From the NCBI RefSeq assembly GCF_003334815.1, contig NZ_QOWO01000002.1: a DNA stretch of 64,000 nt; one strand, given 5' to 3'. Both the position numbers and the translations under genes were made by a program. How positions within the stretch are numbered: the first letter of the stretch is position 1; every line of letters starts with the position of its first letter. This stretch comes from Escherichia coli. GTDB lineage: Bacteria > Pseudomonadota > Gammaproteobacteria > Enterobacterales > Enterobacteriaceae. This document shows, in pieces, positions 22,864 through 51,616 of the stretch. Under the pieces are notes generated by a model. It saw only the letters and a list, made by a program, of their open reading frames with translations, searched no databases and was not told the DNA's origin.

Positions 22864-25608
22864 TCAAATCGCGTTCAGGTCTTTCTTATGCAACCATGCT
22901 TCCAGAGCGGCAACACTGCGTGTAATTTCTTCGTGTGGAAGGGGGGCAGATAATGGCTGCTGCTCCAGTTGTGCGCATAGCTGGCTGGCGATATGCATTC
23001 CCAGACTCGAGCAACTGCTTTTTAGCTGATGCGCGGCACGCTTTATTTTCTCGCTATCCTGACTGGCGCGGGCAATGTCGATTTCATCGAGAAGCGGCAG
23101 GGCATGTTGTGTAAATAATACCAGCCATTCGTGGATCTTCTCCGTCCCCATTAACTGAGCATCTTCATTGAGTTGCGATACATCCAGCGATTGATCATTA
23201 TTGACTTGCAGTTGGAGATAGTGCGCCAGTAACTGACCGAGCACTTCACGCGGCACCGGTTTAGGGATAATCCCGCGGAATAATGAACTGGTACGCTGGC
23301 GCAGCGTTTCGTCAATGACATGGGCGCTAAAGCCAATCAAAACCAGCGACGGATATTGCTGTGCCAGTTGTCGGGCAAGCGTAATGCCGTCGATATCCGG
23401 CAGATCAAAATCCACCAGTGCGGCAGCAAACGGTTCGCTATTTTGCAGTGTCTCTAAAGCCTGCGCGGCATTGCCAACAGCAACAATCTGCGCACCACTG
23501 GTTTTCAGCATCTCAATGGTAATTCGCTGGGTTAGCGGGTTATCTTCAATTAACAGCAAACGTAAACCGTCAAGACGCACCGCCTGATTGACTGTTTTTG
23601 GCACGGGTGCCGTGGCAACACGTAACGGCAAGCGTAAACAAAAACAGCTTCCAACCTCCGGCGTGCTGGTGGCGCTCAGTTCGCCGCCCATCGCCTGGGC
23701 CAGACGGCTACTGATAGTCAGTCCCAGCCCGGTGCCGCCGCGTTTGCCGCTTACCTGCACAAATGGCTGGAAGATTTCTGCCAGTTTCGCGGGATCAATA
23801 CCGCAGCCGCTGTCTTCCACTTCGACCAGCCATTGCTCGCCATCAGTGCGACTACGCAGGATAATGTACCCTTCGTCAGTAAAACGCAGGGCGTTGCTCA
23901 ACAGGTTGGTTATAACCTGACGAATACGTCGTGGATCGCCCATTAACGCGCACGGCATATCATCGGCAATTGCCGTTGCCAGGCGAATCGGGCGACCTTT
24001 CACCCGTCCGCTCATTAATTGCAGGGTACTTTCCAGCAGCGGGCGCGGTTCAAAGGGCTCATCGCTGACCGAAACATTCTTGCCACCTGCTTCGATAGCG
24101 GAATAATCGAGAATATCGTTGAGGATGGTCAGCAACGATTCACCAGAGTCAGTAATTGCCCGCAAATCATCACGCTGGGCGTTAAGTGCGGGGTTATCTG
24201 CCAGCAGTTGAGCAGTGCCGAGAATACCGTACAGCGGTGTGCGGATCTCATGGCTCATCGCCGCCAGAAACGCCGATTTTGCCTGGCTGGCTTTTTCTGC
24301 TTCCGCCCGTGCCTGTCGGTGTTCTATCACCAGTTCCTGCAATTCAGCTGTACGCGCTTTGACCTGCGCCGCCAGCTGTTCGCGGTGGCGATTCAGTGCA
24401 TGAACATTGCTGCGAAACGCATCCATCAGCCGCCCGATGGTATCCAGCTCCCGTACGCCAGCGGTTTCCGGGAAAGGGGAGTCAATATCACCGTCCAGCA
24501 GCCGTTGCAGCGCCTGCGTTTGTTCGGCAAGTGGACGCGTGACTGAGCGATAAACCACGCGCCAGAGGATCAGAATCAGTGCGCAAAGTGAAACCATCCC
24601 CAGCAATAACAGGCTGTATTGCCCGCGTGCACTCGCTTTTTCCAGATGCGCCAGTCCGTGCTGATTACGCAGCTCAATGGTGTCGACCAGCTGACTGACT
24701 TCGCTACTAAACTGCGCGAACTGGGCGATGTTATTTTGTGCGAGAGTTTGTAGGTGATTGCTGATTTCACTGTCCTGCTGATACAGCGCCAGCAAATCGC
24801 TATATTGGCTAACGGTAGTTAACGTTGTTGCGACCTGCGCACGAACACCCGGATCTTCAATGCGTATTTGCCGACGTTGCAGAATTTTCACCGCATTATT
24901 GAGCTGCTTTTCCAGCGTTGGTGCATTTTTCTGGATCTGCTCCAGCCCCAGATTCATCACCATTTGCTGCACCCGCAGAGCGCTAAGGCGCAGTTCATTC
25001 ATCTGGTTAACATACTCAAGATCGATATCAATCAGCCGATCGAGTGCACTTTCAGCAGCCTGACGCTGATCTTGTTCGATCAAATCGTAAATCCCGGCCT
25101 GGGTCGCTCCAGCGGAAGTTGTCGCATTATTCGCCTGACCTTGCGCCAGGCGTGCGATCTCATCGGCGGCAGCGACTATCTGCTGACTGAGTTGCTGTTG
25201 TTGCTGGCGCAGTTGCAAACGCTGCCCCACCAGTTCCCCTTGCTGACGTAACGAACGGGAGATCTCCTGCTCCTGTTGTTCAATAGCGGTGGTATCAAAA
25301 CCTTGTTCCCGTAACGCTTGCAGCAACGCATTAATCTTCAGGCTTTGTGCGGTGAGCATTCGCCCCTGCGCCTGCCACATCTTTTCGTTATCGGCACTGG
25401 TCAGGTTCTGCGCGGCGAAAAGTTCCCAGGCGCTGGCTTCGCTCAACTGGCGCGCCATATTCATGGTAGGAATCAATGCCTGAGTGTTGTCTTTTTCCAC
25501 CTGGCTGATAAAGCGCAGGTTGTACCATCCCACCAGGGTACTGGTCAGGGTTAACAGCGCCATCAGGGCAAAGCCCATCCAGAGTCTTCGGGTCAGGGTT
25601 AAATTCAC
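22864..25608 (-). CDS. torS: TMAO-responsive hybrid sensor histidine kinase
   Basis: 914-aa ORF with H-box (MSHEIRTPL), HATPase, receiver and C-terminal HPt regions; adjacent to torT/torR. Confidence 0.92.
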
Positions 25609-25690: not shown

Positions 25691-26719
25691 ATGCGCGTAC
25701 TGCTATTTTTACTTCTTTCCCTTTTCATGTTGCCGGCATTTTCGGCTGATAACCTGTTGCGCTGGCATGATGCGCAGCATTTCACGGTGCAAGCCTCTAC
25801 GCCGCTTAAAGCCAAACGCGCATGGAAACTGTGCGCGCTTTATCCCAGCCTGAAAGATTCATATTGGTTATCGTTGAACTATGGTATGCAGGAGGCTGCT
25901 CGCCGCTACGGTGTGGATTTAAAAGTGCTGGAGGCAGGCGGCTACAGCCAGTTGGCTACCCAGCAAGCACAAATCGACCAGTGTAAACAGTGGGGCGCAG
26001 AGGCCATTTTGCTCGGTAGTAGCACGACCTCATTTCCCGACCTGCAAAAGCAGGTAGCAAGTCTGCCGGTGATCGAACTGGTAAATGCTATTGATGCTCC
26101 CCAGGTGAAAAGCCGCGTTGGTGTGCCCTGGTTTCAGATGGGCTATCAACCGGGGCGATATCTGGTGCAATGGGCGCACGGTAAACCACTGAATGTGCTG
26201 TTGATGCCCGGACCCGATAACGCCGGGGGCAGTAAGGAGATGGTCGAGGGTTTTCGCGCAGCCATTGCCGGAAGCCTGGTGCGTATTGTTGATATTGCGC
26301 TTGGTGATAACGATATTGAAATCCAGCGTAACCTGTTGCAGGAGATGCTGGAACGCCATCCAGAAATCGACGTCGTTGCCGGAACGGCCATTGCGGCAGA
26401 GGCGGCAATGGGGGAAGGGCGTAACCTGAAAACGCCGCTTACCGTGGTGTCGTTTTATCTTTCACATCAGGTGTATCGCGGGCTGAAGCGGGGAAGAGTG
26501 ATTATGGCTGCCAGCGATCAAATGGTCTGGCAGGGGGAACTGGCGGTTGAGCAGGCCATCAGGCAATTACAGGGGCAATCGGTTTCTGATAATGTCAGCC
26601 CACCGATTTTAGTTCTGACGCCGAAAAATGCCGACCGTGAACATATTCGCCGCTCGCTGTCACCAGGGGGATTTCGTCCGGTCTATTTTTATCAGCACAC
26701 ATCAGCGGCTAAGAAATAA
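25691..26719 (+). CDS. torT: periplasmic TMAO-binding protein
   Basis: 342-aa ORF with signal peptide MRVLLFLLLSLFMLPAFSA; its 3' end overlaps convergent torR. Confidence 0.9.
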   Translation: MRVLLFLLLSLFMLPAFSADNLLRWHDAQHFTVQASTPLKAKRAWKLCALYPSLKDSYWLSLNYGMQEAARRYGVDLKVLEAGGYSQLATQQAQIDQCKQWGAEAILLGSSTTSFPDLQKQVASLPVIELVNAIDAPQVKSRVGVPWFQMGYQPGRYLVQWAHGKPLNVLLMPGPDNAGGSKEMVEGFRAAIAGSLVRIVDIALGDNDIEIQRNLLQEMLERHPEIDVVAGTAIAAEAAMGEGRNLKTPLTVVSFYLSHQVYRGLKRGRVIMAASDQMVWQGELAVEQAIRQLQGQSVSDNVSPPILVLTPKNADREHIRRSLSPGGFRPVYFYQHTSAAKK

Positions 26720-27384
26720 CCTTCACCATGTTGCGTCACCAGTAAATCCGCGCTGAGTTTATGACGTAAACGACGAATTAACACATCGACGGTGCGCAGG
26801 TCAGGGTTTTCCACCCGACGCGCAGAAAGCATACGTAGCAGACGTTCACGGCTGAGAATTTCGCCCGGATTCGTCACAAATGCCACCAACATTTCATACT
26901 CTGCGCGGGTCAGTTTAATCGGCTCGCCATCCCGCTCCAGCGTATGGCGCGACACATTCAGGCAATAACCGGCAAAGCGATAGCAGTTGTCCTGAGTGTG
27001 CGGTTGAGCTTGTCGCGCGAGGTCGATTCGCCAGAGCAGATTTTTCACCCGTACTACCAGTTCGCGCAGTTCCAGCGGTTTGGTGACGTAATCGTCTGCG
27101 CCCATTTCCAGCCCAACAATACGGTCAATCCGATCGCTGCGTCCGGTAACCAGAATAATCCCCACCGTTGAGCGTTCTCGCAGGGCGCGGGTTAACATCA
27201 GGCCATTTTCATCGGGTAAGTTGATATCCAGCAGAATTAAATCTACCGACTGATTCTGCATAATTTCCCGTAGCCCGGCACCGCTCGCCGTAACGGAAAC
27301 GGTATACCCCTCCTGAGTGAAGTAGGATTGTAATCGCGCCTGGGTAACCGGCTCATCTTCAACAATAACAATGTGATGTGGCAT
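26692..27384 (-). CDS. torR: OmpR-family response regulator of the torCAD operon
   Basis: 230-aa ORF MPHHIVIVEDEPVTQARLQSYF... (receiver plus winged-helix); divergent from torC. Confidence 0.92.
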   Translation of the reverse strand: MPHHIVIVEDEPVTQARLQSYFTQEGYTVSVTASGAGLREIMQNQSVDLILLDINLPDENGLMLTRALRERSTVGIILVTGRSDRIDRIVGLEMGADDYVTKPLELRELVVRVKNLLWRIDLARQAQPHTQDNCYRFAGYCLNVSRHTLERDGEPIKLTRAEYEMLVAFVTNPGEILSRERLLRMLSARRVENPDLRTVDVLIRRLRHKLSADLLVTQHGEGYFLAADVC

Positions 27385-27513: not shown

Positions 27514-28686
27514 ATGCGGAAACTCTGGAACGCGCTACGCCGACCCAGTGCTCGTTGGTCGGTACTGGCGCTGGTCGCAATTGGGATTGTGATTGGCATT
27601 GCGCTGATTGTATTGCCACACGTTGGGATCAAAGTCACCAGCACAACCGAATTTTGTGTCAGTTGCCACAGTATGCAACCGGTGTATGAAGAATATAAAC
27701 AGTCGGTGCATTTCCAGAACGCCTCCGGCGTGCGAGCTGAATGCCATGACTGTCATATCCCGCCGGATATTCCAGGCATGGTGAAGCGCAAACTGGAAGC
27801 GAGCAATGATATCTACCAGACCTTTATTGCTCACTCCATTGATACACCTGAAAAATTCGAAGCCAAACGCGCGGAACTTGCCGAGCGTGAATGGGCGCGA
27901 ATGAAAGAAAACAACTCGGCAACCTGCCGCTCCTGCCATAACTACGATGCGATGGATCATGCGAAGCAGCATCCTGAAGCAGCACGTCAGATGAAGGTGG
28001 CAGCGAAAGATAATCAATCCTGCATCGACTGTCATAAAGGTATTGCCCACCAGTTACCGGATATGAGTAGCGGCTTCCGTAAGCAGTTCGATGAGCTGCG
28101 CGCCAGTGCTAATGACAGTGGTGACACGCTGTACTCTATTGATATTAAGCCAATTTATGCGGCGAAAGGCGATAAAGAAGCCTCTGGTTCTCTGCTGCCT
28201 GCTTCGGAAGTGAAAGTCCTTAAACGTGACGGCGACTGGCTGCAAATTGAAATTACCGGCTCGACGGAAAGCGCCGGACGTCAGCGTGTACTCACCCAAT
28301 TCCCAGGTAAACGCATCTTTGTTGCCTCGATTCGTGGTGATGTGCAGCAGCAGGTAAAAACGCTGGAGAAAACCACCGTTGCCGACACCAATACCGAGTG
28401 GAGCAAGTTGCAGGCCACTGCGTGGATGAAGAAAGGCGACATGGTGAACGATATCAAACCGATCTGGGCTTATGCGGATTCGTTGTACAACGGCACCTGT
28501 AACCAGTGCCACGGCGCACCGGAAATCGCCCACTTTGACGCTAACGGTTGGATCGGCACGCTCAACGGCATGATTGGCTTTACCAGTCTCGATAAACGTG
28601 AAGAACGCACCTTGTTGAAATATCTGCAAATGAATGCGTCTGACACCGCAGGTAAGGCTCACGGCGATAAGAAGGAAGAAAAATAA
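27514..28686 (+). CDS. torC: pentahaem c-type cytochrome, TMAO reductase electron donor
   Basis: ORF 27466..28686; 390-aa product from MRKLWNALRRPSARWSVLALVAIG with CxxCH haem-binding motifs (CVSCH, CHDCH, CRSCH, CIDCH, CNQCH). Confidence 0.9.
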   Translation: MRKLWNALRRPSARWSVLALVAIGIVIGIALIVLPHVGIKVTSTTEFCVSCHSMQPVYEEYKQSVHFQNASGVRAECHDCHIPPDIPGMVKRKLEASNDIYQTFIAHSIDTPEKFEAKRAELAEREWARMKENNSATCRSCHNYDAMDHAKQHPEAARQMKVAAKDNQSCIDCHKGIAHQLPDMSSGFRKQFDELRASANDSGDTLYSIDIKPIYAAKGDKEASGSLLPASEVKVLKRDGDWLQIEITGSTESAGRQRVLTQFPGKRIFVASIRGDVQQQVKTLEKTTVADTNTEWSKLQATAWMKKGDMVNDIKPIWAYADSLYNGTCNQCHGAPEIAHFDANGWIGTLNGMIGFTSLDKREERTLLKYLQMNASDTAGKAHGDKKEEK

Positions 28687-31232
28687 TGAACAATAACGAT
28701 CTCTTTCAGGCATCACGTCGGCGTTTTCTGGCACAACTCGGCGGCTTAACCGTCGCCGGGATGCTGGGGCCGTCATTGTTAACGCCGCGACGTGCGACTG
28801 CGGCGCAAGCGGCGACTGACGCTGTCATCTCGAAAGAGGGCATTCTTACCGGGTCGCACTGGGGGGCTATCCGCGCGACGGTGAAGGATGGTCGCTTTGT
28901 GGCGGCAAAACCGTTCGAACTGGATAAATATCCGTCGAAAATGATTGCCGGATTGCCGGATCACGTACACAACGCGGCGCGTATTCGTTATCCGATGGTA
29001 CGCGTGGACTGGCTGCGTAAGCGCCATCTCAGCGATACCTCCCAGCGCGGTGATAACCGTTTTGTGCGCGTGAGCTGGGATGAAGCCCTCGACATGTTCT
29101 ATGAAGAACTGGAACGCGTGCAGAAAACTCACGGGCCGAGTGCCTTGCTGACCGCCAGTGGTTGGCAATCGACGGGGATGTTCCATAACGCTTCGGGGAT
29201 GCTGGCGAAAGCTATTGCCTTGCATGGTAATAGCGTTGGTACGGGCGGAGATTAATCTACCGGTGCTGCGCAGGTGATCCTGCCGCGCGTAGTCGGTTCG
29301 ATGGAAGTGTATGAACAGCAAACCTCCTGGCCGCTGGTATTGCAGAACAGCAAAACCATTGTGCTGTGGGGCTCCGATTTGCTGAAAAACCAGCAAGCGA
29401 ACTGGTGGTGCCCGGATCACGATGTTTATGAATATTACGCGCAGCTAAAAGCGAAAGTCGCCGCCGGTGAAATTGAGGTCATCAGCATCGATCCGGTTGT
29501 CACATCCACCCATGAGTATCTGGGGCGCGAGCATGTGAAGCACATTGCGGTTAACCCGCAAACTGACGTGCCGCTGCAACTGGCGCTGGCACATACGCTG
29601 TACAGTGAAAACCTGTACGACAAAAACTTCCTTGCTAACTACTGTGTGGGTTTTGAGCAGTTCCTGCCGTATCTGCTGGGTGAGAAAGACGGTCAGCCGA
29701 AAGATGCCGCATGGGCTGAAAAACTGACCGGCATTGATGCCGAAACCATTCGTGGGCTGGCGCGGCAGATGGCGGCGAACAGAACGCAAATTATTGCTGG
29801 CTGGTGCGTGCAGCGTATGCAGCACGGTGAACAGTGGGCGTGGATGATTGTGGTTCTGGCGGCGATGCTGGGGCAAATTGGCCTGCCAGGTGGTGGTTTT
29901 GGTTTTGGCTGGCACTACAACGGCGCAGGCACGCCGGGGCGTAAAGGCGTTATTCTGAGTGGTTTCTCCGGCTCTACGTCGATTCCGCCTGTTCACGACA
30001 ACAGTGACTACAAAGGCTACAGCAGCACTATTCCGATTGCCCGTTTTATCGATGCGATCCTCGAACCGGGGAAAGTGATCAACTGGAACGGTAAATCGGT
30101 AAAACTGCCGCCGCTGAAAATGTGTATTTTTGCCGGAACTAACCCATTCCATCGCCATCAGCAGATCAACCGCATTATTGAAGGCTTGCGCAAGCTGGAA
30201 ACGGTTATCGCCATAGATAACCAGTGGACCTCAACCTGCCGCTTTGCCGATATCGTACTGCCTGCGACCACGCAGTTTGAGCGTAACGATCTCGACCAGT
30301 ACGGCAATCACTCCAACCGTGGCATTATCGCCATGAAACAGGTGGTGCCGCCGCAGTTCGAGGCGCGCAACGACTTCGATATTTTCCGCGAGCTGTGCCG
30401 TCGCTTTAATCGCGAAGAAGCCTTTACCGAAGGGCTGGACGAAATGGGCTGGCTGAAACGCATCTGGCAGGAAGGTGTACAGCAAGGCAAAGGACGCGGC
30501 GTTCATCTGCCAGCGTTTGATGACTTCTGGAATAACAAAGAGTACGTCGAGTTTGACCATCCGCAGATGTTTGTTCGCCACCAGGCATTCCGCGAAGATC
30601 CGGATCTCGAACCGCTGGGCACGCCGAGTGGCCTGATTGAGATCTACTCGAAAACTATCGCCGATATGAACTACGACGATTGTCAGGGGCATCCGATGTG
30701 GTTTGAGAAAATCGAACGCTCCCACGGTGGGCCTGGCTCGCAAAAGTATCCGTTGCATCTGCAATCTGTGCATCCGGATTTCCGACTTCACTCGCAGTTA
30801 TGTGAGTCGGAAACGCTGCGTCAGCAATATACGGTAGCGGGTAAAGAGCCAGTATTCATTAACCCGCAGGATGCCAGCGCGCGCGGTATTCGTAACGGTG
30901 ATGTGGTACGCGTCTTTAACGCTCGCGGTCAGGTGTTGGCAGGGGCAGTGGTTTCTGACCGCTATGCACCCGGCGTGGCACGAATTCACGAAGGGGCATG
31001 GTACGATCCAGATAAAGGCGGCGAGCCTGGTGCGCTGTGCAAATACGGTAACCCCAACGTGTTGACCATCGACATCGGTACATCGCAGCTGGCGCAGGCG
31101 ACCAGTGCGCACACTACGCTGGTGGAAATTGAGAAGTACAACGGAACAGTGGAGCAGGTGACGGCGTTTAACGGCCCCGTGGAGATGGTGGCGCAGTGCG
31201 AATATGTTCCCGCGTCGCAGGTGAAATCATGA
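28686..31232 (+). pseudogene. torA: TMAO reductase catalytic subunit (molybdopterin, Tat signal) interrupted by an in-frame TAA at 29253..29255
   Basis: ORF 28686..29255 (MNNNDLFQASRRRFLAQLGG... ending ...HGNSVGTGGD-stop) and ORF 29274..31232 are in the same frame and together span an 848-codon TorA; the single TAA lies between GGD and STGAAQVILPRV. Confidence 0.85.
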
Positions 31233-31828
31233 CCACGCTGACAGCACAACAGATTGCCTGTGTTTACGCCTGGCTAGCGCAGTTGTTCTCCCGTGAGCTG
31301 GACGATGAACAACTGACGCAAATCGCCAGTGCGCAGATGGCTGAATGGTTTTCGTTGCTGAAAAGCGAACCGCCGCTCACTGCGGCGGTGAACGAGCTGG
31401 AAAACCGTATTGCCACGCTGACAGTACGTGACGATGCCCGTCTGGAACTGGCCGCGGACTTTTGCGGCCTGTTTCTGATGACCGACAAACAAGCGGCGCT
31501 GCCGTATGCATCGGCCTACAAACAGGACGAGCAAGAGATTAAACGCTTGTTAGTTGAGGCAGGGATGGAAACCAGCGGCAATTTCAACGAACCGGCAGAT
31601 CATCTGGCGATCTATCTCGAATTGCTCAGCCATCTGCATTTTTCGCTGGGAGAGGGGACCGTTCCTGCGCGAAGAATCGACAGTTTGCGGCAAAAAACAC
31701 TGACGGCGCTGTGGCAATGGTTACCAGAGTTTGTTGCGCGTTGTCGTCAGTATGACAGCTTTGGTTTTTACGCGGCACTAAGCCAGTTATTGCTGGTGTT
31801 AGTGGAGTGCGACCACCAAAACAGATAA
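31229..31828 (+). CDS. torD: TorA-specific chaperone (redox enzyme maturation protein)
   Basis: ORF 31196..31828; 199-aa product from [20 protein letters not shown]; start overlaps torA stop. Confidence 0.9.
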
Positions 31829-50785: not shown

Positions 50786-51616
50786 ATGTTTGTTCCGTTT
50801 CTCATTATGTTGCGCGAAGGACTTGAAGCCGCGCTGATTGTCAGTTTGATTGCCAGCTATCTTAAGCGTACCCAGCGAGGCCGATGGATTGGTGTGATGT
50901 GGATTGGCGTGTTGCTTGCCGCTGCGTTGTGCCTGGGCTTGGGTATCTTCATTAACGAAACCACCGGCGAATTTCCGCAAAAAGAACAGGAACTGTTTGA
51001 AGGTATCGTGGCGGTGATCGCCGTGGTGATCCTTACCTGGATGGTTTTCTGGATGCGCAAAGTGTCGCGCAACGTCAAAGTGCAACTGGAACAGGCAGTC
51101 GATAGCGCATTGCAGCGTGGAAATCATCATGGCTGGGCGCTGGTGATGATGGTCTTTTTTGCCGTTGCAAGGGAAGGGCTGGAGTCGGTCTTTTTCCTGC
51201 TGGCGGCATTTCAACAAGATGTCGGGATCTGGCCGCCGCTGGGTGCAATGCTCGGTCTTGCTACTGCCGTGGTGCTAGGCTTCCTGCTCTACTGGGGCGG
51301 TATTCGCCTCAATCTTGGTGCATTTTTTAAATGGACCAGCCTGTTTATTCTCTTCGTCGCCGCAGGGCTGGCAGCTGGTGCCATTCGCGCATTTCATGAA
51401 GCCGGATTGTGGAACCACTTTCAGGAAATCGCCTTCGATATGAGTGCGGTGCTCTCAACTCACTCGCTGTTTGGCACGCTGATGGAAGGGATTTTTGGCT
51501 ATCAGGAAGCGCCGAGCGTCAGCGAAGTCGCCGTCTGGTTTATTTATCTCATCCCGGCGCTGGTGGCATTTGCTCTGCCACCACGCGCAGGGGCGACAGC
51601 GTCTCGCTCCGCGTAA
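50786..51616 (+). CDS. efeU: ferrous iron permease EfeU (FTR1 family), apparently intact
   Basis: ORF 50777..51616; 276-aa product from MFVPFLIMLREGLEAALIVSLIASYL with two REGLE motifs (REGLEA, REGLES) in one uninterrupted frame. Confidence 0.88.
   Translation: MFVPFLIMLREGLEAALIVSLIASYLKRTQRGRWIGVMWIGVLLAAALCLGLGIFINETTGEFPQKEQELFEGIVAVIAVVILTWMVFWMRKVSRNVKVQLEQAVDSALQRGNHHGWALVMMVFFAVAREGLESVFFLLAAFQQDVGIWPPLGAMLGLATAVVLGFLLYWGGIRLNLGAFFKWTSLFILFVAAGLAAGAIRAFHEAGLWNHFQEIAFDMSAVLSTHSLFGTLMEGIFGYQEAPSVSEVAVWFIYLIPALVAFALPPRAGATASRSA

Follow-up and report, generated by a model that had tools for sequence, protein, structure and literature searches.

The locus considered here raises the question of whether an Escherichia coli strain whose torA gene is crossed by an in-frame stop codon has truly lost its trimethylamine-N-oxide (TMAO) reductase, or whether the stop is an error, an artifact, or a signal that the cell can bypass. 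The stretch of DNA analyzed (hereafter, the window) comprises 64,000 nucleotides of contig NZ_QOWO01000002.1, from assembly GCF_003334815.1, and contains torA at 28686..31232 on the + strand. The answer that we favor, with a probability of about 0.92, is that this torA would be a null pseudogene created by a recent, clonally inherited nonsense mutation (TAC>TAA, Tyr190>ochre) in one natural, phylogroup-A, K-12-like clone of E. coli. An earlier note on this DNA, prepared from the nucleotide sequence, had arrived at essentially the same interpretation, which proposal finds partial support here in that one correction, concerning torC, proved to be necessary.

When torA is translated in a single frame, 189 codons are followed by a stop, 658 further codons, and the natural stop, giving 849 codons in total; the coordinates in that note and its counts of 189 and 658 codons are thus correct. 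The bases 29241..29261 include GGC GGA GAT TAA TCT ACC, in which series the TAA at 29253..29255 (+ strand) constitutes codon 190 and is followed by a T; in all the relatives this codon is TAC, encoding Tyr. As references we used MG1655 and strain 300709, the latter being the closest complete genome. Where K-12 has a C at base 29255 in the alignment with MG1655 (TAC, Tyr190), the window has an A, so that the single C>A change that the earlier note had offered as a sufficient explanation was confirmed; moreover, that substitution is the sole difference across the 2,547 nt of torA with respect to both MG1655 and 300709. The gene is accordingly divided into a 5' fragment of 189 codons (28686..29255, +), which ends at the premature TAA, and a 3' remnant of 658 codons in the original frame (29256..31232, +). 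This remnant begins with the codon of Ser191 and contains no second lesion, which preservation indicates that torA is a young pseudogene. The mechanical list of open reading frames (ORFs) reflects the same division, with one frame of 189 aa at 28686..29255 and another of 652 aa, starting at a GTG, at 29274..31232.

That the interrupted gene is torA, as had been assumed, was borne out by the NCBIfam TorA equivalog (NF011682/TIGR02164), of whose 829 profile positions the two pieces span 2–184 and 186–828, the N-terminal piece scoring 298 bits and the C-terminal piece 1292.7 bits against a cutoff of 909. The full-length match to that profile is thus a property of the DNA locus, and not of any one translatable ORF. 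The N-terminus (MNNNDLFQASRRRFLAQLGG...) is identical to those of K-12 TorA and of the structure PDB 9h4t and displays the twin-arginine motif SRRRFL, so that the signal for twin-arginine translocation (Tat) claimed for this part of the protein is indeed present. The 189-aa product further includes the Molybdopterin_N domain (PF18364) and the beginning of the Molybdopterin domain (a partial PF00384). The genomic context is likewise the one expected for torA: the order torC-torA-torD, with divergent torR, torT, and torS, is syntenic with K-12 and with 300709, and TorT, TorC, and TorD all match their equivalogs with scores well over the cutoffs. What the locus does not offer is an uninterrupted ORF of some 848 codons in which Tat signal and catalytic domains are continuous, because the TAA at codon 190 intervenes.

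The position of that codon within the enzyme is critical. Tyr190 is the Y of the sequence GDYSTGA, which motif is kept in the E. coli TorA (9h4t), the Shewanella TorA (1tmo), and the Rhodobacter DMSO (dimethyl sulfoxide) reductase (4dmr). [quoted passage not shown] Since the stop lies at codon 190 and the Mo ligand is Ser191, translation ends one residue short of the metal ligand, whose codon, though intact, lies one codon past the stop and therefore outside the exported polypeptide. The 189-aa product also lacks about 78% of the enzyme and nearly all of the domains that bind the cofactor: the molybdopterin domain breaks off soon after its beginning, and the C-terminal Molydop_binding domain is missing entirely. 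From these features the fragment would be expected neither to bind bis-MGD nor to reduce TMAO.

Whether the stop was confined to this window was examined in the 5,426 complete E. coli genomes of RefSeq. With a 301-bp query surrounding the stop, torA was located in 5,419 of them, and since all the top-ranked matches bear one mismatch, none is identical. A 41-mer centered on the variant base, of which each 28-bp seed word must include that base, gave 4,759 matching genomes with C at 29255 and none with A; the comparison with the torA of related strains proposed in the earlier note thus shows TAC in K-12 and in the nearest genomes and the TAA allele in 0 of the 5,426. Further carriers were sought by exact-protein look-up of the 189-aa and the 652-aa products, followed by direct comparison of the DNA. 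By this route the A at 29255 was found in a Logan assembly of the reads of SRR10357323, which over 18.6 kb matches the window at 100%; in the NCBI draft GCA_965212685.1, 100% identical over 14.5 kb, where the 189-aa product has the accession CAM9160611.1 and the 652-aa product CAM9160535.1; and in GCA_012802195.1 and GCA_012531265.1, each 100% identical over 13 kb, neither of which lists a torA protein at the locus, as would be expected for an annotated pseudogene. The doubt that had been left regarding this base, namely that the reads might carry a C, was thus answered in favor of A by one assembly built from reads and by three NCBI assemblies, which recurrence indicates that the lesion is real and heritable. 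Since the same stop appears on 100%-identical backgrounds in several assemblies, we consider the allele to be fixed in a natural clone, small but sampled more than once. With an intact orthologue in the close relatives and one derived substitution as its only lesion, the gene has the marks of a pseudogene made by nonsense mutation. Literature searches on the run and assembly accessions and on this allele found no paper, and one on E. coli pseudogenes of torA brought up nothing of relevance.

Two considerations nevertheless weigh against this interpretation as far as inheritance is concerned: some of the third-party assemblies at NCBI and of the Logan assemblies may share sequencing runs, so that the count of independent isolates is uncertain, and the matches are to assemblies made from reads, which evidence is one step away from the raw reads themselves. 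A third consideration, of a different nature, is that an ochre suppressor inserting tyrosine (a tyrT allele of the supC type, for example) may be located elsewhere in the genome.

The look-up of proteins also returned sequences that resembled carriers of the allele and were rejected. Most of the exact matches to the 189-aa product were to Logan/ENA contigs (L005–L013) that end at 29252–29254 and whose gene calls are consequently partial. These contigs belong to many unrelated assemblies, and by stopping 1–3 bases before 29255 they mimic a truncation; such endings are probably breaks of the assembly graph at a polymorphic third-codon position, combined with the selection inherent in an exact-match look-up. 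Among the matches to the 652-aa ORF, L014, L015, L018, and L020 have unrelated lesions, and only L017 and L019 carry the TAA. In L014 and L020 the 652-aa C-terminal ORF results from frameshifts in low-quality assemblies. In L018, which is contig 184 of SRR33161000, Mu-like genes (HTH_Tnp_Mu_1, HTH_35) are located inside torA at the equivalent of window positions 28720..29239, on a background with 4 single-nucleotide polymorphisms (SNPs) relative to the window in 16 kb; this insertion is an independent knockout of torA, in what is possibly a laboratory Mu-insertion strain.

If torA is inactive, what would remain of the Tor system? The sensor kinase gene torS (22864..25608, −) is of full length and has 0 nt differences from K-12 and from 300709; the response regulator TorR (torR, 26692..27384, −) is intact and identical to the K-12 protein; and the same is true of TorD, the TorA-specific chaperone (torD, 31229..31828, +), whose match to its equivalog lies well above the cutoff. 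The control region between torR and torC shows no differences. Because the TorS, TorR, and TorD proteins and that control region are all unchanged, the sensing of TMAO and the induction of the operon would be expected to persist. In the mechanism that we propose, TMAO would still induce the operon through the unchanged TorS/TorT/TorR circuit and torC promoter, while the translation of the torCAD mRNA would end after residue 189, the 658 downstream codons would not be productively translated, and no TorA activity would result. The ATG of torD overlaps the natural stop of torA (ATGA), and the premature termination takes place about 2 kb upstream, so that a reduction in TorD would be expected through the loss of translational coupling and possibly also through Rho-dependent polarity. 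TorD is not known to have another client. Any residual reduction of TMAO would need to be carried out by paralogous reductases encoded elsewhere, namely TorYZ, DmsABC, and YnfEFGH.

The earlier note had held that torC, torD, and the torS, torT, and torR regulators all looked intact. All are in fact full-length open frames, but for torC that description holds only in the sense of an ORF. The gene for this pentaheme c-type cytochrome (27514..28686, +; 878 bits against the TorC equivalog) has a G>C change at 28262 that converts Trp250 into Ser (codon 250), at a site belonging to a conserved G-W-x-E motif whose Trp, in the alignment, is invariant in 19 of the 19 TorC sequences compared with it, the most distant of them 47% identical. 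The region holding W250 (residues 144–274) has been described as a hinge or linker domain (PMC11727998). W250S thus probably damages this operon a second time and, judging from this conservation, would impair the cytochrome as well. The exact TorC protein with S250 was found in only 12 contigs, all of which have a disrupted torA, and no intermediates were found among the sequences obtained that would place TorC W250S and TorA Y190* in order. In torT (25691..26719, +), which encodes the periplasmic TMAO-binding partner of TorS, the ORF is intact (494 bits against the TorT equivalog) and a C>T change at 26277, not present in the nearest complete genomes, produces P196L. This change was considered as a sign of decay specific to the clone and was rejected as such, since the solved relatives vary at position 196, with P, D, or A there, and since the identical TorT-L196 protein recurs widely, in 84 index blocks, including a divergent, 99.1%-identical lineage (L025, L026) whose torA is intact at 848 aa. 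P196L is accordingly a tolerated polymorphism.

The distribution of these changes bears on the alternative that best withstands the evidence, though we still judge it improbable: that the loss of the Tor pathway was adaptive, with TorC W250S and TorA Y190* having been selected in the niche of the clone, for example because the cells thereby avoid a costly induction or the production of trimethylamine (TMA). In keeping with that possibility, the three changes that set the tor locus apart from the nearest genomes (TorT P196L, TorC W250S, and TorA Y190*) are all non-synonymous, whereas the three lineage-private changes in rutB, putA, and efeB are all synonymous; furthermore, TorC-S250 always co-occurs with the stop in torA. 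The numbers, however, are tiny—3 non-synonymous and 0 synonymous in tor versus 0 and 3 in the others (a suggestive contrast, though not a significant one; Fisher p = 0.10)—and the standing polymorphism in TorT must be subtracted, so that only two clone-specific changes are left. A second lesion in an already dead operon, for its part, is what neutral decay predicts. In addition, the nearby etk gene, with three lesions, suggests a general decay of genes in this lineage. This gene (12239..14417, −), which encodes the tyrosine kinase of the group-4 capsule cluster gfc/etp/etk, is a triple-lesion pseudogene with a deleted T at 13342 and a deleted G at 13052, both in short homopolymers, together with a C>T at 12512 that in the original frame changes a TGG (Trp) into TGA. 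The frameshifted 374-aa etk product recurs in the Logan assemblies of both SRR10357323 and SRR3951465, and the etk lesions are therefore real.

In the window as a whole, ten substitutions are private to the lineage (12512, 20138, 26277, 28262, 29255, 42213, 47701, 50487, 53169, and 54304), nine of the ten being at G:C pairs: six G:C>A:T, two G:C>T:A, among which is the torA stop, and one G:C>C:G. This spectrum agrees with the mutational bias usually seen along a terminal branch, with no clear signature of a mutator.

A second alternative, to which we would assign a very low probability, is that the stop is bypassed by an ochre suppressor tRNA, by natural read-through, or by reinitiation, so that some active TorA is made. 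This possibility draws on the circumstances that, with a change of the TAC>TAA class, an ochre suppressor inserting tyrosine would give back the wild-type protein, that the 658 codons downstream contain no second lesion, and that an in-frame GTG lies 6 codons past the stop. The lack of further decay is, however, equally consistent with a young pseudogene, and the only tRNA gene present in the window, when searched for a suppressor, was serT. A TAA followed by T is among the most efficient termination contexts in E. coli, which property argues against read-through. Regarding reinitiation, the first in-frame restart codons after the stop are the GTG at codon 197 and the ATG at codon 206, whose duplex energies with the anti-Shine–Dalgarno sequence are weak (−3.0 and −2.3 kcal/mol, respectively, versus −5.6 to −6.0 at the starts of torC, torA, and torT); and the products, beginning past Ser191, would be devoid of the Tat signal, of Ser191 itself, and of the first 196 residues. 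Programmed recoding, finally, would be recognized by a conserved stop and, for selenocysteine, by a UGA with a selenocysteine-insertion (SECIS) element. The codon here is TAA and not UGA, and the stop is conserved in none of the relatives, which have a sense Tyr codon in its place; recoding is therefore unsupported. From the sequence features, then, a rescue of TorA activity through read-through or reinitiation appears unlikely.

Of comparably slight probability is the alternative that the allele is a laboratory product, originating from a mutagenized or engineered strain. The background is very near to K-12 (99.96%), and laboratory lesions in torA do exist in public data, the Mu-like insertion in SRR33161000 being an example; but the window does not have the IS1D of K-12, it has SNPs in common with natural human and animal isolates (300709 and NCTC9100) and not with MG1655, and the clone recurs in several third-party assemblies at NCBI and in multiple runs. 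The weakest of the alternatives, and in our estimation scarcely credible, is a sequencing or assembly error with C as the true base and an intact torA, because—although no complete genome among the 5,426 carries the TAA allele, and although etk has two 1-bp homopolymer deletions that look like long-read indel errors—the A recurs in the Logan assembly built from reads as well as in three from NCBI, with 100% identity over 13–18 kb, the etk deletions recur in Logan assemblies of two different runs, which recurrence indicates that the assembly of the window is reliable, and the change at 29255 is a substitution and not a homopolymer indel.

The window is E. coli chromosome. Its collinearity with MG1655 begins at yccA, serT, and the hya operon and continues across tor, rut, put, and efe to the pga locus, the 99.96% identity with MG1655 extending over 39.5 kb. 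The IS1D that MG1655 has between gfcA and cspH is missing from the window (~19976..19984), and the upstream region of the gfc operon is uninterrupted, as it is in 300709 and NCTC9100, even though etk is dead. The efeU gene (50786..51616), which in K-12 is presumably a frameshifted pseudogene, is here of full length, with an ORF that does not differ from the intact efeU of 300709. The end of the window (~63706..64000) falls inside an IS3-family element in the same position as in 300709, downstream of dgcT, and the short-read contigs of the NCBI assemblies of the clone end within ~100–200 bp of that point.

The stop in torA is, in sum, real and specific to the clone, but as a null allele of a textbook gene it is ordinary; it involves no new mechanism and is already present in public assemblies. 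In isolates of this clone the principal reductase induced by TMAO should be missing, which deficiency matters little beyond the annotation of the strain, though it is relevant to metabolic models, to the prediction of phenotypes such as TMAO respiration and the production of TMA in the gut, and to the correct annotation of pseudogenes. With regard to method, a lesion that is found in no complete genome can still be validated through read-level assemblies, and database entries of 189 aa that derive from contig ends can imitate a truncation.

Compared with the TorA of K-12 (trimethylamine-N-oxide reductase 1; WP_001062091.1; PDB 9h4t), which is encoded in torCAD under the control of TorS/TorT/TorR, the gene studied here does not differ in its locus, in gene order, or in flanking genes, and it shares the Tat signal and the regulators; each of its 847 sense codons specifies the residue found in K-12, and 2,546 of the 2,547 nt are identical. 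The differences reside in codon 190, which is TAA instead of TAC so that there is no full-length product, and in the additional W250S change in TorC. Other disrupted torA alleles in Escherichia and Shigella, of natural or laboratory origin, inactivate the same non-essential respiratory gene, and there too gene callers split the remnants into N- and C-terminal ORFs. Examples are the truncated proteins of Shigella flexneri (WP_005074272.1 and SUI92023.1), that of E. coli E482 (EGB39076.1), and a 4-bp deletion in a metagenome scaffold (L015). Those alleles, however, are independent frameshifts, deletions, or insertions, and all have C at 29255, whereas Y190* is specific to the clone of the window. 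Such independent lesions are common in public data and indicate that the loss of torA is recurrent and tolerated, which tolerance would be understandable because E. coli has six further Mo-containing S-/N-oxide reductases, for which a functional redundancy has been suggested (PMC12096835).

A last comparison concerns the members of the DMSO-reductase superfamily in which an in-frame stop codon is part of the normal gene. In the formate dehydrogenases FdnG, FdoG, and FdhF, the selenocysteine encoded by a recoded UGA is itself the ligand of the Mo. The likeness to torA lies in the presence of an in-frame stop by the Mo-ligand position of a bis-MGD enzyme; but the torA codon is TAA and not TGA, it replaces the Tyr that precedes the ligand and not the ligand itself, and it is absent from every relative examined.

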